This document shows positions 33,934 to 52,600 of a DNA stretch of 64,000 bases, piece after piece. Every line of letters begins with the position of its first letter. Position 1 is the first letter of the stretch. Where the stretch lies: the NCBI GenBank assembly GCA_044225175.1, contig JBGAJA010000006.1, positions 65,049-129,048 on the forward strand. Reading direction: 5' to 3'. Both the position numbers and the translations under genes were made by a program. Under the pieces are notes generated by a model. That model ran no database searches. It was not told the origin of the DNA and saw only the letters and a program-made list of their open reading frames with translations. The stretch is from Candidatus Omnitrophota bacterium. Lineage in GTDB: Bacteria > Omnitrophota > Gorgyraeia > Zapsychrales > Fredricksoniimonadaceae.

Positions 33934-36606
33934 TTATGATGTCATTGGATTCAATTTATCTGGATTGATCTTCAATTCTGTTTTAGCTTTTGATAATGAA
34001 TCTTGGGTAATTTTCTTGGCTGCAAATAAATCAACCAAAGTTGCCCACACAATATGTTTAGCATCCACTTCAAAGAAGTCGCGCAATGCTTCACGGCTCT
34101 CAGAACGGCCAAAGCCATCTGTTCCAAGAACAGTATAGGAAGCTGGCATCCATTGACGGATGGAGTCCGGCATGGCTTTTAAGTTGTCAGAGGCTGCAAT
34201 GAATACGCCTTCTTCGTTTTTAAGTAAAGTTGCCACATAAGGAGCCTTAGCATTCTTGGTTCCACGTAACATATTGTCACGCTCTGCATGTAGCGCATCG
34301 CGACGAAGTTCGTTGTAACTTGTAACTGACCAAACATCCGTTGCAACGTTATATTTTTCTTCCAAGATCTTTTGAGCTTCAAGAACTTGGTTCATGATGG
34401 CGCCACTTCCCATCAAATGAGCGCGCATTTCAGATTTCTTGGTTGATTTGCTAAAGCGATACATGCCTTTCAAGACGCCTTCTTTAACGCCTTGGGGCAT
34501 GACAGGCATAGCATAGTTTTCATTGCTAACACTTAAATAGTAGAAGATGCTTTCTTGCTTTTCATACATGCGATAAATACCGTCGCGGATGATTAAGGCG
34601 ATTTCAAAAGCAAAGGCAGGATCATAGCAGATCACATTGGGAACGGAAGAAAGAAGCATATGAGAATGACCATCTTGATGCTGTAAACCTTCTCCGTTTA
34701 ATGTGGTACGACCTGCTGTTCCGCCAACTAAGAATCCTTTGCAACGTAAATCAGCCGCTGCCCAGATTAAATCTCCAACGCGTTGAGGTCCAAACATGGA
34801 GTAATAAGTGTAGAAAGGAATCATATTGATATTGTGATTCGCATAAGCACAACCAGCAGCAATAAAGGAGGAGATAGCACCTGCTTCATTGATACCTTCT
34901 TCAAGGATTTGGCCGTCTTTTGCTTCTTTGTAATACATTAAACTTTCTGAATCCACAGGTTCATATAACTGACCTGCATGAGCATAAATACCAATTTGAC
35001 GGAATAAACCTTCCATACCAAATGTGCGCGCTTCATCAGGAATGATGGGAACAATTAACTTTCCAATTTTTTCATCGCGAAGCAACTTGGATAAGACGCG
35101 GACGTAAACCATGGTTGTGGATACGGCGCGTCCTTCAGTTCCTTTAAAAAACTCTTCAAATAATTCTTCTGAAGGAGTTGAAAGTGGTGTGGTTGTGGTG
35201 CTTCGTTGGGGTAAGTAACCGCCTAAAGCTTTACGGCGTTCTTGTAAGTATTTCATTTCTGGAGAATCATCGGCTGGACGATAGAAGGGGGTTTTGACAA
35301 CTTCAGCATCTGAAAGAGGAATATTAAAACGGGTGCGGAATTCTTTAAGTTCTTGTTCATTCATCTTCTTTTGCTGATGGGTAATATTTTTTCCTTCACC
35401 GCTTTCACCTAAACCATAACCTTTGACAGTTTTGGCTAAGATGACTGTTGGAGCACCTTTGTATTCAACGGCCGCTTTATAAGCAGCGTAAACTTTTTCA
35501 GGATCATGTCCACCGCGACGCATTTTTTGAATTTGTTCATCGGATAAATGTTTAACCATGTCTTGCAAGCGTGGATCATTGAAGAACTTTTCACGAACAT
35601 AGGAGCCAGAGGAGACGGTGTACTTTTGATATTCACCGTCTAAGACTTCTCCCATACGTTTAGCTAAATGACCTTCTGTATCTTTTTCTAATAAATCATC
35701 CCAATCATCACCCCAAACAACCTTGATAACGTTCCAACCAGCCCCGCGGAAAAGAGCTTCTAATTCTTGAATGATCTTTCCATTTCCACGAACAGGACCA
35801 TCTAAGCGTTGCAAGTTGCAGTTGATGACAAAAATAAGATTGTCTAATTTTTCACGAGAGGCCATGGTTAAGGCGCCTAAAGATTCTGGTTCATCGCTTT
35901 CACCATCACCCATGTAAACCCAAACTTTGTGATCATCTTTAGCTTTAAGACCACGATCTTCTAAATAACGTGTGAAGCGGGCTTGATAGATTCCCATAAT
36001 TGGAGCTAAACCCATTGAAACTGTAGGGAATTGCCAAAAGTTTGGCATAAGCCAAGGGTGTGGATAAGATGATAAGCCTTGAACAGGTTGAAGTTCGCGG
36101 CGAAAGTTCTTTAAGTTTTCTTCAGTTAATCGCCCTTCTACGAAAGCGCGGGCATATATCCCTGGAGAGGCGTGTCCCTGAAAATACACCAAATCTCCTG
36201 AAAAAGTGGTTGGACTTGCCCTAAAAAAGTGGTTAAAACCTATTTCATATAGGGTTGCAGAGGAGGCAAAGGTAGATATATGACCACCGATTCCATCCGT
36301 GTTTTTGTTCGCTTTGACAACCATGGCCATAGCATTCCAGCGAATAATACTCTTAATGCGGCGTTCTAACTCACGGTTTCCTGGAAAAGCAGGTTGTTTA
36401 TCTTTGGCGATTGTATTGATATAAGGGGTGTTTAATGTGAAAGGGAGTGTAACTCCGCTTTCTTGTGCTCTAATTTGAAGTTGTTGGAGAAGATATTGCA
36501 CACGGTCTGGGGTTCCGTTTGATAAGACATAGTCCAGTGAAGCTAACCATTCTTTTAACTCAATATCATCCATAACGTTTGGTTTTTTAACATTGGGTTC
36601 ATCCAT
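33934..36606 (-). CDS. aceE: Pyruvate dehydrogenase E1 component, homodimeric type
   Basis: 890 aa with a ThDP-binding region (…GDGESDEPE…NLIFVINCNLQRLDGPVRGN…) typical of AceE. Confidence 0.9.
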   Translation of the reverse strand: MDEPNVKKPNVMDDIELKEWLASLDYVLSNGTPDRVQYLLQQLQIRAQESGVTLPFTLNTPYINTIAKDKQPAFPGNRELERRIKSIIRWNAMAMVVKANKNTDGIGGHISTFASSATLYEIGFNHFFRASPTTFSGDLVYFQGHASPGIYARAFVEGRLTEENLKNFRRELQPVQGLSSYPHPWLMPNFWQFPTVSMGLAPIMGIYQARFTRYLEDRGLKAKDDHKVWVYMGDGESDEPESLGALTMASREKLDNLIFVINCNLQRLDGPVRGNGKIIQELEALFRGAGWNVIKVVWGDDWDDLLEKDTEGHLAKRMGEVLDGEYQKYTVSSGSYVREKFFNDPRLQDMVKHLSDEQIQKMRRGGHDPEKVYAAYKAAVEYKGAPTVILAKTVKGYGLGESGEGKNITHQQKKMNEQELKEFRTRFNIPLSDAEVVKTPFYRPADDSPEMKYLQERRKALGGYLPQRSTTTTPLSTPSEELFEEFFKGTEGRAVSTTMVYVRVLSKLLRDEKIGKLIVPIIPDEARTFGMEGLFRQIGIYAHAGQLYEPVDSESLMYYKEAKDGQILEEGINEAGAISSFIAAGCAYANHNINMIPFYTYYSMFGPQRVGDLIWAAADLRCKGFLVGGTAGRTTLNGEGLQHQDGHSHMLLSSVPNVICYDPAFAFEIALIIRDGIYRMYEKQESIFYYLSVSNENYAMPVMPQGVKEGVLKGMYRFSKSTKKSEMRAHLMGSGAIMNQVLEAQKILEEKYNVATDVWSVTSYNELRRDALHAERDNMLRGTKNAKAPYVATLLKNEEGVFIAASDNLKAMPDSIRQWMPASYTVLGTDGFGRSESREALRDFFEVDAKHIVWATLVDLFAAKKITQDSLSKAKTELKINPDKLNPMTS

Positions 36607-36720
36607 AACAATTTACTCCTGATATAGTTACATTGATTAAAAATCGGGGTATTCTAGTATGCAAATTTATGATTGGCAAGGGGAAAACCGTATTTCAAAG
36701 ATATTTTACTGTTATTTATC

Positions 36721-36748
36721 GTAGAGACGCAAGATTTTGCGTCTCTAC
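36721..36748. terminator. Perfect 10-bp stem-loop (GTAGAGACGC-aagatttt-GCGTCTCTAC) between the tRNA-Leu and the PDH operon
   Basis: Read directly from the sequence. On the plus strand it is followed by a moderately T-rich tract, but not on the minus strand. It could be a terminator or insulator; the strand is uncertain. Confidence 0.3.
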
Positions 36749-36763
36749 GGAATATTTTAATTA

Positions 36764-36956: not shown

Positions 36957-39900
36957 ATGCGCAAAAATTTAAGAAGAGTTTTATCCCTAGGGGTTTTATT
37001 TGCCTTTTTGATCACTAGTCTGGGCCCAATTCCAAGTGCTCACGCTCAGGAGCTTGCCTTACCAAAACCTGGGGTGATGGTTCATTTAAGCCCTGCGGTC
37101 AATCCACCCATCCTAAAGGGTTTGAAGGTTCATACGGATAATCCTTTTAGATTTGACTTTATCCTGGATAAAGGTGATTCCGAGCAAGGCTCAACCAATG
37201 CAGGATTGAAAGAAGAATCCAGCCGCTTAATTAAGTATTTTCTAGCTAGTCTAACTATCCCTGAGAAAGATCTCTGGGTGAACTTATCTCCCTACGAAAA
37301 AGATCGAATCATCCCCAATAGCTTTGGTTTAACCGAAATGGGTCGCGATCTCCTAGCTCAGGATTATATCCTCAAACAGATCACCGCATCTTTAATCTAT
37401 CCGGAAGATGAAATAGGAAAGAAGTTCTGGAAGAGAATTTATGAAGAAGCTCAAGTTAGGTATGGGACAACAAATATCCCAGTAAACACTTTTAACAAAG
37501 TTTGGATCGTCCCACAGAAAGCTGTGGTGTATGAGAATGCCAAGGCTGGTACGGCTTATGTTGTTGAATCCAGGTTGAAGGTGATGTTGGAAGAGGATTA
37601 TTTGGCGATGGGTAAAAATATCGTAGGGACGACCCCCCGTGGGCGCCCTTTACCAGGGCAGGTACAGGGGCCTGCCCCTACGGAAACAAATAAAATCGGA
37701 TCCCAAATCATCCACGAAATCGTCATCCCCGAATTAACCAAAGAAATCAACGAAGGCTCAAATTTTGTCCAACTTAGGCAGGTTTATAGTTCCTTGATTC
37801 TAGCTACATGGTACAAGAAAAAGATCAAAGATTCGATATTGGCACGAATTTATGCGGATAAGAATAAGATAGCAGGAGTGGGATATTCTTCCAGTGTCAT
37901 GGCGAGCGAACGTAGTGAGCGCGGCAATCTTTCTAAAAAGATTGCTTCGTCGCCTTTGGCTCCTCGCAATGACACGGAGGAAATCTACCAACGCTACCTC
38001 CAAGCCTTCAAAAGAGGCGCTTACAACTATATCAAAGTAGAAATTGACCCTGTTACTCAGCAATCCATTTCCAGGAAGTATTTTTCTGGTGGAATGCTTA
38101 TAAAACCTGATATTGAAACCACTCAAATTCTTCCTTCGATGTCTCCTGTCCAGTCCTCTGTTGTTGTTTCTGCTGATTTAGCAATGAGCTCAGACCTTAC
38201 ATCAGAGTTAGCTGGTAAAGAGCCTGGAGGGGAAGATCGTGGAAGAAAGAGTCTAGAAGCGCTTAGAGCAATTAAATATGAAGATATTAATGTTAATCAA
38301 GGAACAGGGTTAAAGGAATTGGTTAGGGAGGCGCTGGGTGTAAGTAGTAAAAGAAAGGCTTCTGGGGTAAAGGTATCTGCAGAAGAATATGTAGGCAAGA
38401 TGCAGCGAGGTGAGAGGATTATTGATCAAGTGCCGCAAGCGGTAGATACGATCATGGGTAGGATAGATTTGGGTAAGTTAAATGACATTAATGCCTATGA
38501 TAAGAAAACTATTGTGGCTGATTTATTAAGAGATTTATGGATAGCGGATTTATTGGGGTTGTTAAATGTGGATTTGATATCAACTTTTGGATTTTCGAGT
38601 TTTACGACAATGTTAGTAAAGAAAAGAATTCTTACTAAAGTTTCTTTAAGACCGACAGTCAGATTTGAAGATTATTGGGTTATTAGGAATCGTATCATTC
38701 AGGGTGAGATTATAAATAATCAAATTTATAAAGGTAATGAGGGACAGATTAAATGGGTTAGGCAGATGAAGGACGATGGAAAGATTAATTCGACCAATTT
38801 AAGACATATTTACAATATCTTGGAAGAAGAGTGGGTAAAGCTACTTAATTGGCAAGGAATGAGTATGCCTCTGGAGGAGGCCGAGAAAGTCAGAGTGTTA
38901 GTTGAAGCATTAGTTAAGGATAAAGAACAAATGAAGCTTTATCGAGGCAACGTCGGTCAGATTAAATGGGTGAGAGAAATGAAGAAAGCAAACAGAATTA
39001 CCTCAACCAATCTGGGAAGTATTTATAGCGTGTTGGAAAACGAGTGGATCAAGACAGAAGTCCTTAATTGGCAATACATCAATATGCCTTTAGAAGAAGC
39101 AGAGAAAGTTAGAACTTTAATTGAAGCATTAATTCAGGATCGAGATCAGATGAGACGTTATCAAGGCAATGCTGGTCAGATCAGATGGGCAAGGCAAATG
39201 AAGGATGAAGAGAAGATTGTCTCAACACATCTAGGAAATATTTATAGTGTGTTAGATGAAGAATGGATCAAGACAGAAAACCTTAATTGGCAAAAGATAA
39301 ACATGTCTTTAGAGGAGGCTGAGAAGGTTAGAGTGTTAATTGAAGCATTGGTTCAGGATCCTAACCAAGTAAGGCTTTATCAAGGTAATGCTGGCCAGAT
39401 CAGATGGATAAGACAAATGAATGATGAACGGAAGATTGCCTCAACACATCCAGGAAATATTTATACTGTGTTGGATGAAGAATGGATCGAGACAGAAAAT
39501 CTTAATTGGCAAAAGATGAATATGCCTTTAGAAGAGGCAGAGAAAGTCAGAGTATTAGTGGAAGCATTGGTTCAGGATCCAGATCAGATGAGACGGTATC
39601 AAGGTAATGCCGGCCAGATCAGATGGGTAAGGCAAATGAAGGATGAGGGAAAGATTGCCTCAACACATCTAGGGCATATTTATAGTGCATTTGATGAAGA
39701 ATGGGTCAATACAGAAAATCTTAATTGGGAAAAGATGAATATGCCTTTAGAAGAGGCAGAGAAAGTCAGAAAGTTAATTGAAGCGTTAGTTCAGGATCGA
39801 GATCAGATGAGGCGGTATCAAGGCAATGCCGGCCAAATCAGATGGGTAAGGCAAATGAAGGATGAGGGGAAGATCAACGCTACTAATTTAGCTAGTATTT

Positions 39901-42179
39901 ATAGTGTTTTGGAAGGTGAATGGGTAAAGCCGGATGTGCTTAATTGGAAAAAGATGGATATGCCTCTGGAGGAAGCAGAGAAGATAAGAGAGATGATTCA
40001 AAAATTAGTTCAAGACCCTAAACAGGTGGAGTTATATAAAAATAATGCTGGGCAGATTAAATGGGTAAGACAGATGAAGGATGGCGGCAAGATTGCCTCA
40101 ACTCACTTGTCTAATATTTATAGTGTCTTGGAAGAAGAGTGGATAAAGCCTGATGAGCTTAATTGGCAACAGATGAATATGTCTTTAAAGGAAGCGGAGA
40201 AGATAAGAGAGATGATTCAAAAATTAGTTCAAGACCCTAAACAGGTGGAGTTGTATAAAAATAATCCTGGCCAGATCAGATGGGCAAGGCAAATGAAGGA
40301 TGAGGGTAAGATTAATTCGACTTATTTAGGCAATGTTTATAGTGTCTTAGATAAAGAATGGGTAAATGCGGATGTGCTTAATTGGCAAAATATACACATG
40401 TTATTAAAAGAAGCAGAGGCCCAGCAGCTATCTCAAGAACCTCCTGATCAAGCTATGTTAAGCGCTGTCCCAGATGTCGTGGCATTATTAGAAGAAAAAC
40501 AACGGCAAGGCATGATAGATCAATATTTAGGCTCCATGATGCATTATGCAAAGTTTGGAGATTTAGCTATTTATTATTTGATACGTGATGTTCGCTCTAA
40601 AACTGGTTTTTTAAAACCAATTTCTCCGGCAACGTTTGCTGCCAGTATGAATACTCTTCTTGCGCCTCAACTTAAAGAGATTGGCTTTACTTTTAAGAAA
40701 GGATCTTTAACTGAAGAGGTATATTCGGGATTGGAACAATGGTTAAAAAAAATCTCCTTCGATCAACTCTCTTCCTATGGAAGTATGGCAGGATTAATTC
40801 GTCTAATCAAACAGATCGAAGCAGATAAAGATGGTGATTTAAGTAAATTAAAAGGGGTCCATCTAAGTCAATTAACTGCATTGCTTCATGCATCGAGGAA
40901 TGTTGAGCTTATATCAGGTCATGCTATACAGAAGTGGGAGCTTCCATATCTAACTATGAGTATGGAAAAGTTTCAGGCTCTAGAAGCTTGGGCTGAAAAA
41001 ACAAAGGAATTATCTAATTATGGAAACATGAAAGGTTTGGTTTTGCTGGTTCAAGAAATTATGTCTGGGAAAGATGATGATTTAAAGAAATTGCAAGATG
41101 CGGATTTGTATGATCTTACGATGGTGCTTCATTCATCCGAAAATATTAAAGCTTTAACAGCTCGAACCATTCCAGGTTGGAATATGCCTCGGGTTAATAT
41201 GTCGGTCCGGCAATTTTATGCTATTCAACTTTGGCTTAAGAAGCAAGACGCATACAAATATAATAAGATGTCAGGTTTGATTTTATTGGTTGGAGAAATT
41301 GAAAGTGGAAAAGAACTCGATCTCAAAGTTCTAAAAGGAGTTAACCTCAGTTCATTGACTTCATTGCTTTCTTCAAGGGAGAATATGGAAGCTTTGACAG
41401 GTCAGTTCATGAAAGATTGGGATATTCCAAATATTAAAATGACCATAAAACAATTTACTGCTTTGCGTCTTTGGGCAAGAGAACAAGAAAGCAGATTAGC
41501 TATATATGGAAGTATGCAGGGATTGATTACTTTAATCGATGAAATCAATAAAGGTCAAGATCCACATTTGAAGGTTTTGCAAGGGATCAATTTGGGATAC
41601 TTAACTCACCTTCTTCATTTTTCTGAGAATATTGAAGCGTTAACCGGACAATATATTGAAAGTTGGGATATGCCGTTTGTCAATATGTCCATGAAACAGT
41701 TTCAAGCGCTTTATCAATGGATTATAAAACAGAAATCTAATTTAGAGCAATATGGAAGTGAGAAAGGTTTGGAAGAATTGCTTAAGAAAATTGAGGCAGG
41801 GGAAGCTGAGTTGAGTCCATTGAAAGGGATCAATCTAAAACCTCTAACATTATTTCTTTCTTCCCCTAAAAATATTAGAGATTTATCAGGCCGAGATATT
41901 GCAGGTTGGAATATGCCTATTTTGAAAACTACATATGCGGAAGCTCTTAGAGATTTTGGAATTAAAGATCAGGCGATGTCAAAATCTACCCCAGGTGGTA
42001 TTGATTTAACCACTGCTTCAATGAATTTGGAAACTGAAACTCAAAATAGTAACGAAGAATTTAAATTCAATATTGACCCCGCAATGCTCAAACAACTTCA
42101 AAACGCTCCAGGTTTTTATCCCATCATCATGAATATCACACGTTTACAAGATTTGAAAACTTTCCTGGTAAGTCCATAA
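36957..42179 (+). CDS. Giant secreted repeat protein (1740 aa). It has a signal peptide, a conserved ~330-aa N-terminal module shared with the ORF at 49678, 8x 73-aa repeats, 5x ~80-aa repeats, and a conserved C-terminal module.
   Basis: A single uninterrupted ORF with signal peptide …SLGPIPSAHA. Its N-terminal and C-terminal (…GGIDLTTASMNLE…GFYPIIMNITRL…) regions align with those of the 49678-53736 protein. The internal repeats were read directly. No known family was recognised. Confidence 0.7.
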   Translation: MRKNLRRVLSLGVLFAFLITSLGPIPSAHAQELALPKPGVMVHLSPAVNPPILKGLKVHTDNPFRFDFILDKGDSEQGSTNAGLKEESSRLIKYFLASLTIPEKDLWVNLSPYEKDRIIPNSFGLTEMGRDLLAQDYILKQITASLIYPEDEIGKKFWKRIYEEAQVRYGTTNIPVNTFNKVWIVPQKAVVYENAKAGTAYVVESRLKVMLEEDYLAMGKNIVGTTPRGRPLPGQVQGPAPTETNKIGSQIIHEIVIPELTKEINEGSNFVQLRQVYSSLILATWYKKKIKDSILARIYADKNKIAGVGYSSSVMASERSERGNLSKKIASSPLAPRNDTEEIYQRYLQAFKRGAYNYIKVEIDPVTQQSISRKYFSGGMLIKPDIETTQILPSMSPVQSSVVVSADLAMSSDLTSELAGKEPGGEDRGRKSLEALRAIKYEDINVNQGTGLKELVREALGVSSKRKASGVKVSAEEYVGKMQRGERIIDQVPQAVDTIMGRIDLGKLNDINAYDKKTIVADLLRDLWIADLLGLLNVDLISTFGFSSFTTMLVKKRILTKVSLRPTVRFEDYWVIRNRIIQGEIINNQIYKGNEGQIKWVRQMKDDGKINSTNLRHIYNILEEEWVKLLNWQGMSMPLEEAEKVRVLVEALVKDKEQMKLYRGNVGQIKWVREMKKANRITSTNLGSIYSVLENEWIKTEVLNWQYINMPLEEAEKVRTLIEALIQDRDQMRRYQGNAGQIRWARQMKDEEKIVSTHLGNIYSVLDEEWIKTENLNWQKINMSLEEAEKVRVLIEALVQDPNQVRLYQGNAGQIRWIRQMNDERKIASTHPGNIYTVLDEEWIETENLNWQKMNMPLEEAEKVRVLVEALVQDPDQMRRYQGNAGQIRWVRQMKDEGKIASTHLGHIYSAFDEEWVNTENLNWEKMNMPLEEAEKVRKLIEALVQDRDQMRRYQGNAGQIRWVRQMKDEGKINATNLASIYSVLEGEWVKPDVLNWKKMDMPLEEAEKIREMIQKLVQDPKQVELYKNNAGQIKWVRQMKDGGKIASTHLSNIYSVLEEEWIKPDELNWQQMNMSLKEAEKIREMIQKLVQDPKQVELYKNNPGQIRWARQMKDEGKINSTYLGNVYSVLDKEWVNADVLNWQNIHMLLKEAEAQQLSQEPPDQAMLSAVPDVVALLEEKQRQGMIDQYLGSMMHYAKFGDLAIYYLIRDVRSKTGFLKPISPATFAASMNTLLAPQLKEIGFTFKKGSLTEEVYSGLEQWLKKISFDQLSSYGSMAGLIRLIKQIEADKDGDLSKLKGVHLSQLTALLHASRNVELISGHAIQKWELPYLTMSMEKFQALEAWAEKTKELSNYGNMKGLVLLVQEIMSGKDDDLKKLQDADLYDLTMVLHSSENIKALTARTIPGWNMPRVNMSVRQFYAIQLWLKKQDAYKYNKMSGLILLVGEIESGKELDLKVLKGVNLSSLTSLLSSRENMEALTGQFMKDWDIPNIKMTIKQFTALRLWAREQESRLAIYGSMQGLITLIDEINKGQDPHLKVLQGINLGYLTHLLHFSENIEALTGQYIESWDMPFVNMSMKQFQALYQWIIKQKSNLEQYGSEKGLEELLKKIEAGEAELSPLKGINLKPLTLFLSSPKNIRDLSGRDIAGWNMPILKTTYAEALRDFGIKDQAMSKSTPGGIDLTTASMNLETETQNSNEEFKFNIDPAMLKQLQNAPGFYPIIMNITRLQDLKTFLVSP
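38727..40478 (+). repeat. Eight in-frame tandem repeats (one 213-bp unit, then seven 219-bp units) inside the giant gene. Units 3-6 are nearly identical at the DNA level.
   Basis: Unit consensus: YQGNAGQIRWVRQMKDEGKIASTHLGNIYSVLDEEWIKTENLNWQKMNMPLEEAEKVRVLIEALVQDPDQMRR. Unit starts (TAT codons) are at 38727, 38940, 39159, 39378, 39597, 39816, 40035 and 40254. Confidence 0.85.
40776..41985 (+). repeat. Five in-frame, more diverged tandem repeats of ~240-246 bp (~80 aa) inside the giant gene
   Basis: Unit pattern: YGSM.GL..L..EI..G.D.DLK.L.G.NL..LT.LL.S.ENI.ALTG..I..W.MP.…M…QF.AL..W. Unit starts are near 40776, 41019, 41259, 41505 and 41751. Confidence 0.7.
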
Positions 42180-42239: not shown

Positions 42240-44228
42240 ATGAATAAAACTACTTCTATTGATAACTTCAAAGAAGCACCGAAAGCCTCCTCACCTCAAG
42301 AAAGTCCCAAAGAAAATTTAAAAGTTTTATCGCATCCCTTTATCACAGAACATGATATCTACCTTTTCAAAGAAGGAAATCACTTTAGACTTTACGAGAA
42401 ATTAGGCGCTCATCAGATCGTTGTGGATGGGAAGCCGGGTGTTCATTTTGCCGTTTGGGCCCCGAATGCTAAGAAGGTTTCTGTTATTGGGAACTTCAAT
42501 GGCTGGAATCGTTCTTCTCATTCTTTAAACCCCCGCTGGGATCATTCTGGGATTTGGGAAGGTTTTGTTCCGGGAATCTCTAAGGGTGAAATCTACAAAT
42601 ATTTCATTGTTTCTAGTCAGGACTATTATCAAGTTGAGAAACAGGATCCTTTTGCCATTTATAATGAAGTAGCTCCCAACACAGCTTCTATAGTATGGGA
42701 TTTAGATTATGAATGGAAGGATCAGCCATGGATGGAGAGCCGTTACAAGAAGAATAGTTTAAATGCTCCTATGTCCATCTACGAGATGCATTTAGGTTCT
42801 TGGAAGAAGGTTGTTGAAGATAATGGTCGTTTCTTGACGTACCGTGAAATGGCAGATCAATTACCTGAATATCTTAAATACATGGGGTATACCCACGTCG
42901 AATTTTTGCCAGTTATGGAGCATCCTTTCTATGGTTCCTGGGGATATCAAACTTTAGGCTATTTTTCAACCACCAGTCGCTACGGTACGCCGCAAGATTT
43001 TATGCATTTGGTCGACTGCCTGCATAAAAATAATATTGGTGTCATTCTAGATTGGGTTCCATCTCACTTTCCGACGGATGAACATGGTTTATCTTACTTT
43101 GATGGAACACATTTATTTGAACATACAGATCCTAGAAAAGGCTATCACCCAGATTGGAAGAGTTCCATTTTTAATTATGGACGTAATGAAGTTCGTGAGT
43201 TTTTAATTTCTTCTGCCATGTTTTGGATGGAGAAATTTCATATTGATGGACTTCGGGTAGATGCTGTTGCCTCCATGTTGTATTTGGATTATTCCCGCCA
43301 ACAGGGCGAGTGGATTCCAAATGAATATGGCGGGCGTGAGAATTTAGATGCCATGTTCTTTATTCGTAAATTAAATGAAACAATTTATTCTAACTTTCCT
43401 GACACACAAATGATTGCAGAGGAATCTACCGCATGGCAAGGTGTTTCAAGGCCAAATTATCTAGGCGGATTGGGATTTGGGATCAAATGGAATATGGGAT
43501 GGATGCACGATACGCTCGTTTACATGAGTAAAGATCCTATCTATCGTAAATACCATCAGAATGATCTAACATTCTCATTTTTATACGCCTACACAGAAAA
43601 TTTTATGTTGTCTTTATCCCATGATGAAGTGACTCATGGAAAAGGGTCCTTGATTTCTAAAATGCCTGGTGATTTTTGGCAGAAATTTGCTAATCTTCGA
43701 CTACTAATGGGCTATATGTTTGCCCATCCAGGTAAGAAGTTGAATTTTATGGGAACTGAGTTTGCCCAATGGGAAGATTGGAATCATGATCATTCTCTGC
43801 AATGGCATTTATTGAACTATGAGCCTCATAAAGGAATTCTTCAATTGGTCAAAGACTTAAATCACTTGTATCGTTCAGAGCCAGCTCTCTATGAATGTGA
43901 TTTTACTCCAGATGGTTTTGAATGGATTGATTTCAGTGATTACCAAAAAAGTATCATTTGCTTCATGAGAAAGTCTTTTGCTAATAATAGCCAGATCATT
44001 GCTGTTTGTAATTTTACACCCCAAACTTGGCATAATTATTCAATCGGTGTTCCGTATGCAGGAATATGGAGAGAAGTTTTAAACACTGATGCATCCATAT
44101 ATGGAGGATCCAATCAAGGTAATGGAGGAGCTCTTCAGGCCCAGAATTATTCCAGCCATGGAAGACCTTTTTCATTATCATTAACTATTCCTCCACTAAG
44201 CATTTTGTTTTTAAAAAATGTTAAATAA
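42240..44228 (+). CDS. glgB: 1,4-alpha-glucan branching enzyme (GH13)
   Basis: Includes the motif YMGYTHVEFLPVMEHPFYGSWGYQTLGYF. Confidence 0.9.
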   Translation: MNKTTSIDNFKEAPKASSPQESPKENLKVLSHPFITEHDIYLFKEGNHFRLYEKLGAHQIVVDGKPGVHFAVWAPNAKKVSVIGNFNGWNRSSHSLNPRWDHSGIWEGFVPGISKGEIYKYFIVSSQDYYQVEKQDPFAIYNEVAPNTASIVWDLDYEWKDQPWMESRYKKNSLNAPMSIYEMHLGSWKKVVEDNGRFLTYREMADQLPEYLKYMGYTHVEFLPVMEHPFYGSWGYQTLGYFSTTSRYGTPQDFMHLVDCLHKNNIGVILDWVPSHFPTDEHGLSYFDGTHLFEHTDPRKGYHPDWKSSIFNYGRNEVREFLISSAMFWMEKFHIDGLRVDAVASMLYLDYSRQQGEWIPNEYGGRENLDAMFFIRKLNETIYSNFPDTQMIAEESTAWQGVSRPNYLGGLGFGIKWNMGWMHDTLVYMSKDPIYRKYHQNDLTFSFLYAYTENFMLSLSHDEVTHGKGSLISKMPGDFWQKFANLRLLMGYMFAHPGKKLNFMGTEFAQWEDWNHDHSLQWHLLNYEPHKGILQLVKDLNHLYRSEPALYECDFTPDGFEWIDFSDYQKSIICFMRKSFANNSQIIAVCNFTPQTWHNYSIGVPYAGIWREVLNTDASIYGGSNQGNGGALQAQNYSSHGRPFSLSLTIPPLSILFLKNVK

Positions 44229-44247
44229 TTATTATCAAGGAGAGGTT

Positions 44248-44544
44248 ATGAAAGATAAGATTATAGAAGCGGCAGGGAAAACATGGAGATTTTTAGGGCA
44301 AAATGGTGAAGTGAATGTTGATCAATTACCTAAAGTTCTCAAAGAAAAAGAACATGTTATTTTTCAAGCTCTTGGCTGGCTGGCCCGTGAGGATAAATTA
44401 AGTTATTCTACCAAGAATCGTCGTACGTTCGTTACGCTCGTTGAAGGTGAGTTGCAAGCTTTTAATAGTTTGATGTATAACATTCAACAAGACCAAAGTG
44501 CCCCCCAAAAAACTAAGGGTTCAAACGGAAGGCTTAAGAAATAA
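44248..44544 (+). CDS. Hypothetical small protein (possible winged-helix fold)
   Basis: 98 aa from the ATG at 44248, with a GGAGAGG RBS. It lies between glgB and the GH57 gene. No family was recognised. Confidence 0.3.
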   Translation: MKDKIIEAAGKTWRFLGQNGEVNVDQLPKVLKEKEHVIFQALGWLAREDKLSYSTKNRRTFVTLVEGELQAFNSLMYNIQQDQSAPQKTKGSNGRLKK

Positions 44545-44557
44545 TTAGAAAGTATTT

Positions 44558-47011
44558 ATGAATCGTTTCGTTTGCATCCATGGTCATTTCTATCAGCCGC
44601 CTCGAGAAAATCCTTGGTTGAATGAAGTTGAACTTCAAGAATCTGCTCATCCTTATCATGATTGGAATGAGCGCATTAATGCTGAGTGTTATGCGCGTAA
44701 TGCCTTTTCACGCATCCTAGATGATAAGCAAAGAATCATTGATATCGTCAATAATTACTCCAAAATTAGTTTTAATTTTGGTCCTACTTTATTTTCCTGG
44801 TTAGAGCAAAAAGCCCCTCAAACATATGAAGCTATTTTAGAAGCTGATCGCAATAGTCAAAAGAATTTCTCTGGTCATGGCAGTGCTTTAGCGCAGGTTT
44901 ATAACCATATGATTATGCCCTTAGCTAATACGAGGGATAAACGCACCCAAATATTATGGGGAATTAAAGATTTTGAATATCGATTCAATCGAAAGCCTGA
45001 AGGGATGTGGCTTGGCGAAACGGCAGTTGATTTAGAAACTCTTGATATTATGGCTGAGTATGATGTGAAATTTACAATCTTAGCGCCTCATCAAGGGAAG
45101 ATGATCAGGAAAATTAAGGATGTCCAATGGCAGGACCTTCAAGGGCAAAAGGTGGATTATCGTCGAGCTTATCTTTGTCGATTACCTTCGGGAAGATCTA
45201 TCAGCATTTTCTTTTATGAAGGATCTATTGCTCAAGAAGTTGCTTTTAATGGGCTTTTAAATAATGGAGGAAATTTTGCTCATCGCCTGATGTCTAATTT
45301 TGAAAATCATAATCATGAACCTCAATTAGTGAATATTGCGACTGATGGGGAGACATATGGGCATCATCATAAATTTGGCGATATGGCTTTAGCCTACTGT
45401 TTACAGTCAATGGAATCTCAGGAACACACTCAATTAACGATTTATGGCGAATATTTAGAGAAATTTCCTCCTACATATGAAGTCATGATTGAAGAGAATT
45501 CATCATGGAGTTGTTTTCATGGTATTGAAAGATGGAGATCTAATTGCGGTTGTCATACCGGCGGGCAGCCAGGATGGAATCAGCATTGGCGCAAACCTTT
45601 AAGGGAAGCATTGGATTGGCTGCGAGATGAGCTGGCTAAAGTTTACGAAGAGGAGATTAGTACTTTTGCGCCAGAAGCCTGGATTCTTAGAAATCAATAT
45701 ATTGAGTTAATCCTGGATCGTACTCCTGAGAATACTCAGAAATTCATTGATAATCATATTTCTAAACCTTTAAATGAAGAAGAACGCATCAAACTATTTA
45801 AGCTTCTGGAAATGCAATACAACGCTCTTTTGATGTATACCTCTTGCGGCTGGTTTTTTGCAGATATTTCTGGGATTGAGACCATACAAATTCTTAAATA
45901 TGCTGCGCGCGCTATTCAATTGGCCCATGAAGCAACATCGGTTGATTTAGAAGAAGGGTTTATAAGAAGATTGGAAGAATCGCGTAGTAATGTGCCGGAA
46001 TACAAAAATGGGGCCCATGTTTATAAGACTTTTGTCAAACCTTCGATCGTCGATCTTCCTAGAGTATCAGCCCATTATGCCGTAAGCTCTTTGTTTGAAC
46101 ATTATCCTCCTAAGATTCAAATGTATTGTTACACCATTGAAACTGAATTTTATGAACTCAAAGAGGCTGGACGTTTACGTTTGGCTTTGGGGTATGGCTG
46201 GGTTTCTTCGAATATTACAGGGGAGAAAGCCCATGTGCGATTTGCTGTATTGCATTTGGGGGACCATAATTTCATTGGCGGGATGGATTATCAGAAAAAT
46301 GATGATTTTACTCAGATTTATAATGTATTGTCTGAAGCTTTTTTAGAGAGTAATGTCTCTGAGATCATTCATTTGATCAACATTTACTTTGATGCAAGAA
46401 ATTATTCTTTGTGGGACTTATTCAAGCAGGAACAAGAAACAATATTGAACCATGTTTTACATTCCACCATTGAAGATATGGAATATTCTTTTCGTCAGAT
46501 TTATGAATACCACTATCCTTTAATGCAGATCAAAAATGATACTAGGCTTCCTTTGCCAAGGATGTTAACTACCGTCGTAGAATTCATTCTGACTCGAGAC
46601 TTGGTTGCATTGATAGAGCAGGAAAACTTGCAGGTCGATAAGATGAAGGGGCTTGTTGAGCAAATGAAGAGGTGGGATTTTAAAAGGGATCAAGCTAACT
46701 TTGGATTCCTGGCTAGTAAACGGATGAATGTGTTTATGGAAAAACTTCTGGATCACCCAGATAATATTGAACTTCTTGAGAATGTTACGGTGACTTTTGA
46801 ATTATTAAACCAATTAAACTTCGATTTAGATTTATGGAAAGCACAGAATATTTATTTTTCTTTGGTACTTAAGATTTATCCTGAAATATTAAGCCAAACG
46901 CCAAAAGATGCTTTGGCATTACGTTGGATTGCGTGGATTGAACGTTTGGGAGATGTTTTACAGGTAACCTATAATTCTTCTTCCACTGTTAAAGGACCAG
47001 CTTATATATGA
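44558..47011 (+). CDS. Glycoside hydrolase family 57 protein with C-terminal DUF3536-like extension
   Basis: N-terminal …CIHGHFYQPPRENPW… is the hallmark GH57 start, followed by …DGETYGHHH…. The protein is 817 aa. Confidence 0.8.
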   Translation: MNRFVCIHGHFYQPPRENPWLNEVELQESAHPYHDWNERINAECYARNAFSRILDDKQRIIDIVNNYSKISFNFGPTLFSWLEQKAPQTYEAILEADRNSQKNFSGHGSALAQVYNHMIMPLANTRDKRTQILWGIKDFEYRFNRKPEGMWLGETAVDLETLDIMAEYDVKFTILAPHQGKMIRKIKDVQWQDLQGQKVDYRRAYLCRLPSGRSISIFFYEGSIAQEVAFNGLLNNGGNFAHRLMSNFENHNHEPQLVNIATDGETYGHHHKFGDMALAYCLQSMESQEHTQLTIYGEYLEKFPPTYEVMIEENSSWSCFHGIERWRSNCGCHTGGQPGWNQHWRKPLREALDWLRDELAKVYEEEISTFAPEAWILRNQYIELILDRTPENTQKFIDNHISKPLNEEERIKLFKLLEMQYNALLMYTSCGWFFADISGIETIQILKYAARAIQLAHEATSVDLEEGFIRRLEESRSNVPEYKNGAHVYKTFVKPSIVDLPRVSAHYAVSSLFEHYPPKIQMYCYTIETEFYELKEAGRLRLALGYGWVSSNITGEKAHVRFAVLHLGDHNFIGGMDYQKNDDFTQIYNVLSEAFLESNVSEIIHLINIYFDARNYSLWDLFKQEQETILNHVLHSTIEDMEYSFRQIYEYHYPLMQIKNDTRLPLPRMLTTVVEFILTRDLVALIEQENLQVDKMKGLVEQMKRWDFKRDQANFGFLASKRMNVFMEKLLDHPDNIELLENVTVTFELLNQLNFDLDLWKAQNIYFSLVLKIYPEILSQTPKDALALRWIAWIERLGDVLQVTYNSSSTVKGPAYI

Positions 47012-48507
47012 GTCACAGAGCAAGCGGCATACTTCTTCATATCAGTTGTTTACCATCTAATTATGGAATTGGAGATTTTGGTCCCCATGCTTATGCCTTT
47101 ATAGATTTTCTTAAGAATTCTGGCCAAACCTATTGGCAAATGCTTCCACTTAATCCGACCGATGGGATTAATGGTCATTCTCCTTATAGCTGTTTTTCCG
47201 CTTTTGCTGGAAATTCTTTATTGATTAGCCCTGATTTCTTAGTCATTGATGGTTTTCTTAAGCCAGGTGATTTAAAAAACAATCCAGACTTTGAAAAAGA
47301 TCAAATTGATTATCCTAAAGTAATTCCTTTCAAGCACAAACTTCTGGATTTAGCTTTTAAGAATTTCCAAGCGCAGGAGAGGAAAGCTGATTATGATGAT
47401 TTTCTGGTACAAAATAAATCTTGGTTAATTGATTTTGCTATTTTTTCCGCTGCTAAATCTAAATATTCGGGTCTTTGTTGGGAGCAATGGCCAGCTACTT
47501 TGAAGGACCGTAATTCACGTACTTTGGCTACTTTTGCTAAAAAACATTCGGACGAAATTGAGCTGACCAAATTCACCCAATATGTATTTTATCGTCAATG
47601 GGGGCGATTAAAGGCTTATGCTAATAGTAAGGGGATCAGCATTATTGGCGATATTCCCATTTATGTGAATTATGATAGTGTGGATGTATGGTGTCATAGG
47701 TCTTATTTCAAATTGGATAAAAAAGGCGAATTGAAATTTATCAGCGGCTGTCCGCCCGATTATTTTTCTAAAACTGGCCAACGCTGGGGAAATCCAGTCT
47801 ATGATTGGGTAAATATTAAGAAAAATAAATATTCATGGTGGGTCAAGCGTATTGCTCATAATTTGTCGATGTTTGATTATTTACGTATTGATCATTTTCG
47901 TGGTTTTTGTTCTTTTTGGCAGATTCCAGCTCATGAAAAGCTCGCTGTCTTTGGACAGTGGATCAAAGGTCCAGGAGAAGAATTCTTTAATTATTTACTT
48001 AGACATTTTAAATATCTGCCTCTTATTGCAGAAGATTTAGGTGAGGTCAGTAATGAAGTTTTGCTTTTAATGCGTCGATTTCAGTTTCCTGGAATGAGAG
48101 TATTGTTATTTGCTTTTACAGGGGAACCTAAAAGAAATCCACATGTACCAGCTAACTATCCGGAAAATTCTGTAGCCTATACGGGAACCCACGATAATAA
48201 TACTGTCCAAGGCTGGTACTATCAGGAAGCCAAGGAGCATGAGAGAGCCAATATTAAAATTGTTCTGGGAGTCAAGCCTGTTCCTCGACAATTACATTGG
48301 CAAATGATAGAAGCACTCTTTAAATCGAAATCGAATACTGTGATTGTTCCTTTACAAGATGTTTTTGGCCTGGATGCTTCTTCACGAATGAATACGCCGG
48401 CAACTAAATCTCATAATTGGAGATGGCGTTTTGAAGCAGGAGCATTAACAGCCTCCTTATCTGCTAAACTTTTAAGAATTACTCGTCGAACAAAGAGGAG
48501 CGAATAA
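47008..48507 (+). CDS. malQ: 4-alpha-glucanotransferase (amylomaltase, GH77)
   Basis: ASGILLHISCLPSNYGIGDFG at the N-terminus, plus …GDIPIYV… and …LRIDHFRGF…. Confidence 0.85.
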   Translation: MSHRASGILLHISCLPSNYGIGDFGPHAYAFIDFLKNSGQTYWQMLPLNPTDGINGHSPYSCFSAFAGNSLLISPDFLVIDGFLKPGDLKNNPDFEKDQIDYPKVIPFKHKLLDLAFKNFQAQERKADYDDFLVQNKSWLIDFAIFSAAKSKYSGLCWEQWPATLKDRNSRTLATFAKKHSDEIELTKFTQYVFYRQWGRLKAYANSKGISIIGDIPIYVNYDSVDVWCHRSYFKLDKKGELKFISGCPPDYFSKTGQRWGNPVYDWVNIKKNKYSWWVKRIAHNLSMFDYLRIDHFRGFCSFWQIPAHEKLAVFGQWIKGPGEEFFNYLLRHFKYLPLIAEDLGEVSNEVLLLMRRFQFPGMRVLLFAFTGEPKRNPHVPANYPENSVAYTGTHDNNTVQGWYYQEAKEHERANIKIVLGVKPVPRQLHWQMIEALFKSKSNTVIVPLQDVFGLDASSRMNTPATKSHNWRWRFEAGALTASLSAKLLRITRRTKRSE

Positions 48508-49677: not shown

Positions 49678-52600
49678 ATGAAGCAAAATACTTTTAACCC
49701 CAAAAAAGTAGCATATCAAAACCTGCGTAAAACAATTACAAGCGTTGTTCTCACAGCTTTTTTTTGTACTTCCTTACATAATCCATCTTATGCACAATCT
49801 GTATCGGGCAATATGCCTTGGATGCCAAAGCCAGGGGTAATTGTCCGTTTAAGCCCTGAATTTAAACCAGCACATTTACTGGGAATGACCATTCATGGGG
49901 ACAATGCTTTAAAGTTTGATTTTATTGTTCATCGTGGTGATAACCCATTAACTGAAGATCAGAAAAAAGAAGAATATAATAAGCTTATTAAATATTTTCT
50001 AGCTTCTTTGACTATTCCTGATGAAAACCAATGGGTCAACCTTTCGCCTTATGAAAAGAACCGCATTATTAAGGAAGACTTTGGAACAACAGAAATGGGA
50101 CGTGATCTTTTAGCCCAGGATTACGTGTTAAAACAAATCACATCCAGTCTTATTTATCCTGAAGATAATCTAGGAAAGAAGTTTTGGGATAAGGTGTATG
50201 ACCGTGCTTGGAAAGAATATGGCACAACAAATGTCCCTGTAAATACCTTTAATAAGGTTTGGATTATTCCTGATGAAGCAGTTGTTTATGAAAGCGGTAA
50301 TACTGCTTATGTGCTTCGTAATCATTTGAAGGTCATGTTGGAAGAAGATTATGTCTCTTTAGATAAACATAGTGGAATTACAAATAATAAACCTACTGTT
50401 AGCAATACCAATAAAGCACATAGCCTGGCTTCACAAATTATTAAGGACATTGTTCTCCCTGAGTTAGAAAGGGAAGTTAATGAAGGGCAGAATTTTGCTA
50501 ATCTTCGTCAGATTTATAGCGGGATGATTTTGGCTACATGGTACAAGAAAGCATTGAAAGAAAGTTTATTAGGACAAATTTATGTTAATCGATCTAAGGT
50601 CAAAGGAGTTGAACAGAACCCTCAAAATAATCAAGTCATTTATCAGCAATACTTAAAAGCCTTTAAGAAAGGTGTATTTAACTACATTAAAGAAGATGTA
50701 GACAAATACACCAAGGAGAGTATTCCTCGTAAATATTTCTCTGGTGGAACAATCAACGATTATGCCCAGGTCACAAAATTCTTAAAAAAAGGAGATTCTT
50801 TGCCAGAGAACATTGATTTTGCTTCTCTTGCAACAGGGATTGCTGACCTTGCGACTGTGGTAATTGATGGTTCAGGTAATAATGCAAGTTTTAATGGTCG
50901 CGATTCAGTAGTGGAAGTTCTTAGGTTATTACAAGGAGGAGGCCTTTCTAATGCAGAAAGAAATGGGTGGCAGGCGTTGGGAAGGTTGGCGGGAACAGAA
51001 GCTTTGGAAGTCAAAAGAAGAATTATGGATGCTGAGTTAATCGTGTATGACAGAGAAGGAAGGGCTATTAGAAGAACATTCTTTAACGGAAACTCTTTGA
51101 TAGACCAAGTTCAAATTTTATTTAAGGAAGGTCAACAGGTTCTTTTTCTTGATGAATCTTCTGAAGTATCAAGTAGCAGTCAAATGGTTGCTGTCCCTTC
51201 GGTCAGGGGAAATTCAAAAGGAATTATCCTTTCTGAGACATCTAGAGCCCCTGAAATAGCGCGTAAATTAGGAGCTCTGTTTTCTTCATTGATCTACATA
51301 ACAGAAACTAAACCTACAATAACGTATCTTGGTTTGTATCCTTCATTAGATAGAGGTTCCAAAGATTTTCAAAAAGGGCCAAATGCCATTGATAAAAATA
51401 ATAAAGATAAGACTACCTCTGCGTATAAACTTAATGGGTTTACAACTCTACCGGTAGTTCTGAGTCAAAGTATGAATGAAAGGGTATTAGAAAGAAGCAT
51501 AGGTACTTTTAGTAATCGAAAAAGAGGAATGGTAGGTGTTGCTGTTGAGTCGTTTGAAAAAATACCTAATGGGTTACTTGCACTTTCAAATGAAAGATTT
51601 TATTTAGTCTCTATTTATGTGCAAGTTCCTTCTAGTATCCCTCACGTGGATACTGGCAGAAATTCTGCGATAACTGTTAACTTTTATATGACAAAATCTG
51701 AGCTAGATCAATTTACGAGTTTGATTCAACAGTCACCTGAAGCATTGATTTATGCGTTTCAAGAAAATTCAGACGTAAATCTTAGTAATATTTTTAAAGG
51801 GATGATGGGAGATGCGCTGAAAGAGGGTATAGGGTTCTATGGTCCTACTAATTTAGGTCAATATCCGTTGGAAGGTCTTATATCTTCTGACGAGTTAAGG
51901 TCTATTATTTCAGCTGATGCGGCATTGATTGCGGGGAAAGATAAGGCCCTTTTAGAAAAAGTATTCCTAGGAACTCTTCAGATGTTGAGTAAATCTGGAC
52001 TATTGGGAGATGAGGTAGCACGAGAAAGAGTATATGAACGTTTATTTCCTCATTTAAAACCTTTGAGAGGTATGATTTCTACTGCATTGACAAACAAACC
52101 TACTATTGAGAGTGTACAAGAAATACCAGAATTTGTGGCTGCAGTTAACAATTTATTTACACCAGAGCAGGTAGCGCGTGATTTTACTAGTTTTTCAAAA
52201 GATGCACGAGATATTAGTAATCTAAAACAAGTTTTTATTAATGATTTCAATCAATTCTTAAGATTAATCAAAAACTTTTCTGAGACTAGAGTTGTATTAA
52301 GTGCTAATAAAATCATTCTTTCAGATGTTCTTTCGGATTTATATGATCTCTCCAATAAAATAATCCAGAATAAGACTTCTGTTGTAGAGTTGCAAAAAGC
52401 AGTTGAGGCTCTTCTTTTAAAACAACCGGAAGCCGCTCGACCATCCTTAAGGGAGATTTTATTAAAAGAAGTAAAAAGAATGCATAGTCAATTGAAGCTA
52501 AAAGAAGTCGTGTTGGAGAAAAGCAATCAAGTATTAGCAGATTTAAAAGCAAGAGGGGTGATTGGTGAGCTAGATGCAGTTAATGCAAGGGAGAAATTGA

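Follow-up and report, generated by a model that had tools for sequence, protein, structure and literature searches.

Several bacterial surface proteins carry tandem repeats that vary in copy number, among them the streptococcal Alp/Rib proteins, the staphylococcal SD-repeat proteins (PMC3324548), and the mycoplasma Vlp/Vsa proteins. The protein described here, encoded within a 64,000-nucleotide stretch of DNA that was analyzed as a whole (the window), resembles them in having in-frame units of tens of residues and a signal peptide, and its first repeat array resembles theirs in that similarity peaks among the central units and that units show evidence of exchange. In those systems, however, the units are identical or near-identical in DNA and strain differences are documented, whereas the units of the window array are 60 to 88% identical, with dS of at least 0.31, and under purifying selection, and the array is that of a single genome. 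A second comparison is with the TPR/Sel1, HEAT/ARM, and PPR proteins. Like these, the array (termed A-type below) consists of all-alpha tandem units, is predicted to be continuous, and probably forms a binding scaffold, but its unit of about 73 aa has five helices, in contrast to the 34 to 47 aa and two or three helices of the known helical repeats, and it has neither a Pfam repeat model nor a fold match in the PDB. Finally, MARTX toxins and T9SS cargo proteins have conserved terminal modules around variable internal domains, with a C-terminal sorting domain in T9SS cargo. The family to which the window protein belongs shares only the logic of this layout, with no similarity of sequence or fold detected: the window protein has neither the glycine-rich RTX repeats nor the cysteine-protease domain of MARTX toxins, and it has no match in NCBIfam, which we take to hold models of the T9SS C-terminal domain.

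Closer to hand are the long proteins of Omnitrophota, which combine signal peptides, repeated domains with decayed nucleotide tandems, and a mixture of "cytoplasmic-type" domains (10.64898/2026.06.07.730766; 10.1101/2023.11.21.568195). The window protein shares with them the phylum, the signal peptide, and the decayed repeats. Those studies are concerned with giant proteins (those with 10,000 aa or more were clustered) and with repeats annotated by Pfam (10.64898/2026.06.07.730766; 10.1101/2023.11.21.568195). The window protein is shorter, at 1740 aa, and no Pfam model exists for its repeat or its terminal domains.

Layout of the protein and its two arrays

The repeats lie in an open reading frame of 1740 codons plus a stop at 36957 to 42179 on the forward strand, as are all of its parts described below. 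Its translation contains two repeat arrays, and the product is identical to P0001 in an NCBI-derived protein collection, which is encoded on a 135-kb contig. Tandem domain repeats are already known in signal-peptide-bearing bacterial proteins, and the present case is an ordinary, unannotated example. The N terminus (36957 to 37046) has the makeup of a predicted Sec signal peptide, in which MRKNLRR is followed by a hydrophobic core and by a cleavage site between AHA and QE that was placed by the -3/-1 rule. Consistent with this assignment, aa 5 to 28 were the sole hydrophobic segment of the 1740-aa protein in a Kyte-Doolittle scan. Going by its signal-like N terminus, the protein is probably exported. 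A conserved N-terminal domain follows (37047 to 38156), which was recognized from matches across a large family whose source-named members are mostly from Omnitrophota. One of its loops contains a palindromic in-frame insertion, an inverted repeat at 37894 to 37975 that encodes ...SVMASERSERGNLSKKIASSPLAPRNDT..., and the N-domains of homologues bear other short peptide insertions. The domain that we call head A (…GERIIDQVPQAVDTIMGRIDLGKLN…DLLRDLWIADLLGL…VRFEDYWVIRNRII) lies immediately upstream of the first array, within the approximate boundaries 38244 to 38726. Its motifs, G-E-x-I-I-D…V-D-T-x-x-G-x-I-D-L…L-N and R-D-L-W-I-A-x-x-L-G-L, also stand upstream of A-type repeats in P0002, P0007, P0121, P0126, and P0135.

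The A-type array of eight units occupies 38727 to 40460, as judged from Tandem Repeats Finder, translations, a unit HMM, and alignment. Tandem Repeats Finder reported the interval 38844 to 40361 (6.9 copies with a period of 219 bp, 79% matches without indels, and a score of 1378), and the unit HMM found exactly 8 domains, spanning aa 591 to 1168, with E values of 1e-35 to 1e-45. The first unit starts at 38727 and has 213 bp (71 aa); units 2 to 7, of 219 bp each (73 aa), start at 38940, 39159, 39378, 39597, 39816, and 40035, and all units are in frame 0 of the open reading frame. These analyses bear out the unit starts and the in-frame tandem spacing put forward in an earlier reading based on the letters of the DNA and its open reading frames (the sequence-only reading). 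That reading had counted one 213-bp unit and seven of 219 bp, and here one correction is needed: the eighth unit, starting at 40254, is incomplete, its similarity being gone after about 150 nt (near 40404) and its last 70 nt or so having 20 to 46% identity to the other units, so that six full 219-bp units stand beside the 213-bp one. Over the eight units, 22 of the 73 columns are invariant, and the units conform to the profile Y-x-G-N-x-G-Q-I-x-[WF]…S-T-x-L…W…L-x-W…M-P-L-E-E-A.

A linker and a second head (head B, …YAKFGDLAIYYLIRDVRSKTGFLKPIS…; 40461 to 40775) lead into a B-type array of five units of 80 to 83 aa at 40776 to 41972, with unit starts at 40776, 41019, 41259, 41505, and 41751. An HMM built from the units of P0003 detected all five (E values of 1e-10 to 4e-29). 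Because the B-type units are just 55 to 61% identical in nucleotides, the array is missed by Tandem Repeats Finder. Head B is common to P0003 and P0004, in which B-type arrays (7 and 9 units, respectively) follow their own head without A-type repeats. As the A module (in P0002) and the B module (in P0003 and P0004) are separate elsewhere, the window protein combines the two. The A and B profiles gave a colinear but weak alignment in hhalign (P = 0.0035, probability 9%). A conserved C-terminal tail (41973 to 42176; …TPGGIDLT…DPAMLKQLQNAPGFYPIIMNI…) completes the protein. The B-type array had not been remarked on in the sequence-only reading.

Divergence and exchange among the A-type units

In-frame tandem units in a protein with a signal peptide could constitute a contingency locus, at which RecA-mediated unequal exchange changes the number of units and thus yields length or antigenic variants of a surface protein. 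The sequence-only reading had suggested a possible contingency locus, describing the middle units as near-identical and their expansion as recent and ongoing. In keeping with such a locus, the unit lengths of 213 and 219 bp are multiples of three, so that the frame would be kept on gain or loss of a unit, which is possible in principle in this gene. The central units are also more alike than those at the edges, and the gradient in the identity matrix agrees with the earlier statement that the flanking units are the more diverged. The extent of the divergence tells against the proposal. Units 3 to 6, said to be only a few nucleotides apart, differ at 27 to 65 positions per 219 nt: 33 between units 3 and 4, 37 between 3 and 5, 27 between 4 and 5, and 57, 65, and 57 between unit 6 and units 3, 4, and 5, respectively. 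Whereas units 3 to 5 are mutually 83 to 88% identical, unit 6 is only 70 to 74% identical to them and partners with unit 7 (82% identity, 40 differences). Pairs other than those within units 3 to 5 and that of units 6 and 7 have 60 to 77% identity, and over all pairs the range is 27 to 100 differences per 219 nt. Even the closest pair, units 4 and 5, has dS of 0.31 as estimated by the method of Nei and Gojobori; values of 0.59 to 0.88 were obtained for units 3 and 4, 3 and 5, and 6 and 7, and in most of the other pairs dS is above 1 or saturated. With the youngest pair at 0.31 and most pairs at 0.6 or more or saturated, the description of near-identical units and of a recent or ongoing expansion is not supported.

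Units of size-variable surface proteins are expected to be about 95 to 100% identical in DNA, and no pair in this array exceeds 88%. Homologous recombination drops steeply at such divergence, and the exact runs that units share are short: the longest exact repeat has 56 nt (at 39978 and 40197), and the others mostly have 9 to 32 nt. dN/dS, obtained by the same method, was 0.11 to 0.34 over all unit pairs, and the many synonymous changes together with these low ratios show that each copy is held individually by purifying selection. Simple-sequence tracts of the kind that drive phase variation are absent between 36600 and 42200, where one C6 and one A8 run are present and no unit of 2 to 9 nt reaches four copies, and P0002, 51% identical to the window protein, likewise has 8 units. 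Searches of about 15 billion proteins and of two contig collections brought up no variant alleles of the array. Close relatives, too, were absent from the collections searched. The 90% cluster of the protein has a single member, and no relative of more than 51% identity was present in the protein collections searched. A second protein search, with aa 432 to 1273, returned P0002 as its lone match, and protein-pattern scans of genome and metagenome contig collections with this region gave zero matches. Synteny sought through the neighboring glgB gene produced matches of at most 66% identity, all from other phyla. Given the differences among units 3 to 6, the dN/dS values, the absence of simple-sequence tracts, and the equal unit number of P0002, the proposal of a contingency locus is not supported, and we regard it as improbable.

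Exchange between units has nevertheless left traces that are in line with past recombination of the kind such a locus would use. Over roughly the first 60 nt, unit 6 is 93 to 95% identical to unit 5, and over about the last 70 nt it is 91 to 100% identical to unit 7, which makes it a mosaic. Gene-conversion patches of this sort show that exchange of sequence between units still takes place and count against a fully stable array.

The array might instead have been collapsed, expanded, or assembled as a chimera from short metagenomic reads, and it had been flagged earlier as a likely site of short-read collapse. The contig is apparently metagenome assembled and the sequence has been seen only once, and records of related repeat proteins are often partial; two examples annotated as such, P0125 and P0162, come from contigs 3.1 and 9.8 kb long, which may end inside arrays. 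Here, however, all units are distinct, the frame of 1740 codons is intact, and substitutions between units are biased toward synonymous changes. Moreover, just two 55-mers and no 77-mers recur in the array, and with so few recurring words collapse in a de Bruijn assembly is not expected. Collapse at this site is therefore unlikely, and an artifact in any of these forms is, in our judgment, very improbable indeed. As a diverged domain array and not a hypervariable locus, the repeat region should be taken neither for a marker of antigenic variation nor for an assembly hazard.

Origin, fold, and spread of the A-type repeat

Among the 120 best whole-protein homologues, the A-type repeat is found in only two, P0002, whose 8 units each have 71 aa, and P0007, which is 33% identical to the window protein and has 7 A-type units. 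A unit-by-unit identity matrix against P0002 shows no diagonal, and units are 51 to 82% identical within the window protein but 38 to 63% identical to any unit of P0002. In a neighbor-joining tree, all eight units of the window array fall in a single clade, separate from those of P0002 and P0007. This clustering by protein, together with the mosaic structure of unit 6, indicates that lineage-specific duplication and gene conversion shaped the array. The homologous expansion proposed earlier is thus supported by the tree and the mosaic as a process of duplication and conversion over evolutionary time, although not, at dS of 0.31 or more, as one that is still under way. For long Omnitrophota proteins, a 2026 preprint concluded that most of the repeats stem from old duplications and that their tandems have decayed at the nucleotide level (10.64898/2026.06.07.730766), and the window array agrees with its general conclusion on repeat age.

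Overall, we assign a probability of about 0.65 to the reading that the A-type repeats are an old, diverged, and constrained array of helical domains in a protein with a signal peptide, stable and not hypermutable, with a presumed scaffold role. Unit duplication and gene conversion built the array in its own lineage and partly homogenized it, and the A-type copies then diverged by 12 to 40% in DNA, each under purifying selection. The eight helical units may stack as one elongated array, as suggested by the modeling of three units as a single confident body, and the A array and the five B units might together provide a multivalent scaffold, for binding or as a spacer, outside the cytoplasm. The most likely role of the arrays is that of a scaffold with a structural or binding function, and on this evidence the A-type array appears to act as a stable structural array and not as a hypermutable size switch.

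AlphaFold2 (AF2) modeling of units 3 to 5 gave an all-helical best model with a mean pLDDT of 90 and a pTM of 0.82, from a shallow, largely self-derived alignment of 11 rows made of in-register triplets; two of the five models were confident and the other three scored 61 to 67. In the predicted structure, each unit has five helices, namely, a helix of 14 residues, two short ones, a 16-residue helix (PLEEAEKVR…) that is preceded by an L-N-W loop, and a final short helix. Most of the conserved residues have aromatic or aliphatic side chains (Y1, I8, W10, M14, I20, Y29, W36, L42, W44, M49, and L51), which fits a folded core. Foldseek searches with the A-type model returned nothing at an E value of 0.001 or below in the PDB or BFVD, sequence searches of the PDB with the repeat and with the N-domain gave no matches, and the A-type repeat has no accepted family in Pfam, NCBIfam, PHROGs, or PADLOC. 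As modeled, then, the A-type unit is a helical domain of an undescribed family of about 73 aa.

In Pfam and NCBIfam, the protein matched the unrelated families Rrn6_HB, Ribosomal_L21e, Mt_ATP_synt, and Transpeptidase, and no match was to TPR, Sel1, HEAT, SLH, or PG-binding models. These matches have whole-protein scores that are summed over the repeats, as do those in PHROGs and PADLOC, and we judged all of them spurious. No stretch was individually significant in Ribosomal_L21e, Mt_ATP_synt, or Transpeptidase. Rrn6_HB had one significant stretch (aa 940 to 1091; 41.2 bits against a cutoff of 26.4), and this match was judged spurious because it covers just the C-terminal half of the model, which represents a yeast RNA polymerase I factor. 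The same pattern of summed scores recurs in other A-repeat proteins.

When a profile of the eight units was compared with 1.84 billion representative proteins, 37 matched at an E value of 0.001 or below, with 1 to 10 matched stretches each. Thirty-three of the 36 A-repeat proteins that were redetected with a unit profile contain tandem arrays of 2 to 9 units, and the other three have a single unit. Periods are mostly 60 to 75 aa, and mean identity within an array ranges from 29% to 100%. The few named members derive from metagenome-assembled genomes of Omnitrophota and Elusimicrobia. The helical repeat of about 73 aa, whose fold is confidently predicted, is known from only 37 protein clusters, lacks a counterpart in Pfam, NCBIfam, and the PDB, and represents an unannotated family. 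Some of the other A-type arrays are much younger than the one in the window, with units up to 98 to 100% identical, and two A-repeat proteins that share a 90% cluster do not have the same unit content. Both observations, like the partial records on short contigs, lend the improbable contingency reading weak support. Together with the conversion patches, they leave room for occasional copy-number change in an array that is otherwise best described as stable.

Terminal domains and the wider family

Matches to the 1740-aa protein number more than 4000, most of them through the terminal regions only. The majority span 21 to 25% of the query, corresponding to the N-domain, at 57 to 70% identity. 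Judged from these sequences, the family has a common layout of signal peptide, conserved N-domain, variable middle, and conserved "GGIDL" C-terminal tail. The N-domain, of about 350 to 370 aa, follows the signal peptide and is conserved in hundreds of homologues. The tail, of about 65 aa, lies at the extreme C terminus in all of the 120 best matches, 117 of which have the motif GG[IV]D[LF]. The few members whose source is named are from Candidatus Omnitrophica/Omnitrophota, with the exception of one Phenylobacterium record. We found no description of the N-domain/"GGIDL"-tail family in the searchable literature. This unannotated family, seen mostly in Omnitrophota and with conserved ends around diverse middles, is a more interesting lead than the repeat.

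The architecture of the family prompts a different view of the arrays, in which the N-domain and the C-terminal tail would form an export or surface-display cassette common to the whole family and possibly serve delivery directed at a host or prey, while the A and B arrays would be swappable targeting or binding modules, shuffled between proteins and with unit numbers tuned by unequal exchange. Both ends are present in each of the 120 best homologues, around unrelated middles of 489 to 2477 aa, and the precomputed Pfam domains in these middles are very diverse, including methyltransferase, kinase, HATPase, GGDEF, and receiver domains. Head and repeat also occur together as separate modules in other proteins (the A module in P0002, the B module in P0003 and P0004), in agreement with module shuffling, and two paralogs are found inside the 64-kb window. 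However, no similarity to known secretion, sorting, or translocation domains was detected, and the N-domain itself matched nothing in Pfam, NCBIfam, or the PDB. Its AF2 model was of low confidence (pLDDT 58), so that a fold search with it was uninformative. The proposal draws on architecture. Nor were there conserved neighbors at the loci examined: the genes around P0002, P0007, and P0003 are housekeeping or unrelated genes that vary by locus, and genomic context accordingly allows no inference. We therefore treat the cassette as a tentative and rather unlikely account of the protein as a whole, and retain the stable scaffold array as the preferred reading.

Omnitrophota include suspected predators or parasites, and exported modular proteins of this kind would be plausible interaction factors. 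The window itself contains a further example of the family layout: a paralog at 49678 to 53736 has an N-domain (49822 to 50754, 52.6% identity) and a similar tail (…GGIDLNS…).

A large protein family with a hypervariable middle

The protein encoded by the repeat gene (36957-42179, plus strand) has the conserved ends, at 36957-38156 (N-terminal) and 41973-42176 (C-terminal), of a family of more than 4,000 proteins, mostly labeled Omnitrophota where the source gives an organism. The order of parts in this family is a signal peptide, a conserved N-domain of ~350 aa, a hypervariable middle and a conserved "GGIDL" tail of ~65 aa. The middle spans 489-2477 aa among family members and its Pfam domains are highly diverse; neither the N-domain nor the tail had a match in Pfam, NCBIfam or PDB. 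Two family paralogs are found within the 64-kb window, with a paralog at 49678-53736.

Within a loop of the N-domain lies an in-frame palindromic element of ~82 bp (37894-37975), which reads GTGTCATGGCGAG…GGCAATCTT / AAGATTGC…CTCGCAATGACAC and has one further partial match, of 12 nt, at 4912-4923 on the minus strand. The N-domains of homologues hold different short peptide insertions (VIPAKAGIQ…, SLPLVGRVREGGD and PTRGHV…). Together, these insertions look like translated MITE/REP-like repeats that are tolerated inside coding sequence.

Neighborhood of the repeat gene

The gene is flanked on one side by the divergently transcribed aceE (pyruvate dehydrogenase E1; 33934-36606, minus strand) and on the other by a glycogen-metabolism cluster (42240-48507, plus strand) comprising glgB and malQ together with genes for a small wHTH DUF2582 protein and a GH57/DUF3536 protein. 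Neither of the two examined loci of homologues that share the A-type (71-73-aa) repeat, P0002 and P0007, is syntenic with this arrangement. Between aceE and the repeat gene is a strong hairpin with a 14-bp stem (36719-36750, plus strand); the tail that follows the stem is T-poor, and the hairpin is therefore not convincing as an intrinsic terminator.

Repeat arrays in the same gene and in relatives

Downstream of the A-type array, the same open reading frame carries a second tandem array, of five B-type units of 80-83 aa (40776-41972, plus strand), which Tandem Repeats Finder did not detect because its units are just 55-61% identical to one another in nucleotides. The B-type unit may be a distant relative of the A-type unit. 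Two homologues with B-type repeats only also bear arrays, that of P0003 consisting of 6.6 copies of 249 bp with 83% matches, the other being in P0004.

Two close relatives with A-like 62-aa repeats, P0127 and P0155, fall in one 90% cluster, and their arrays are not alike in unit order or content; the first and third units of P0127 have the same sequence. Partial annotation and short contigs mark several related records, P0125, P0162 and P0163 among those considered, and these contigs may end inside repeat arrays. Younger arrays of the A-like family therefore seem to be variable and may break assemblies.

In the window, GC skew peaks at +0.35 in the 38001-40000 interval, over the repeat array, versus ~0.1 elsewhere, and AT skew there is +0.15, probably reflecting the E/K/Q-rich, purine-rich codon usage of the array.
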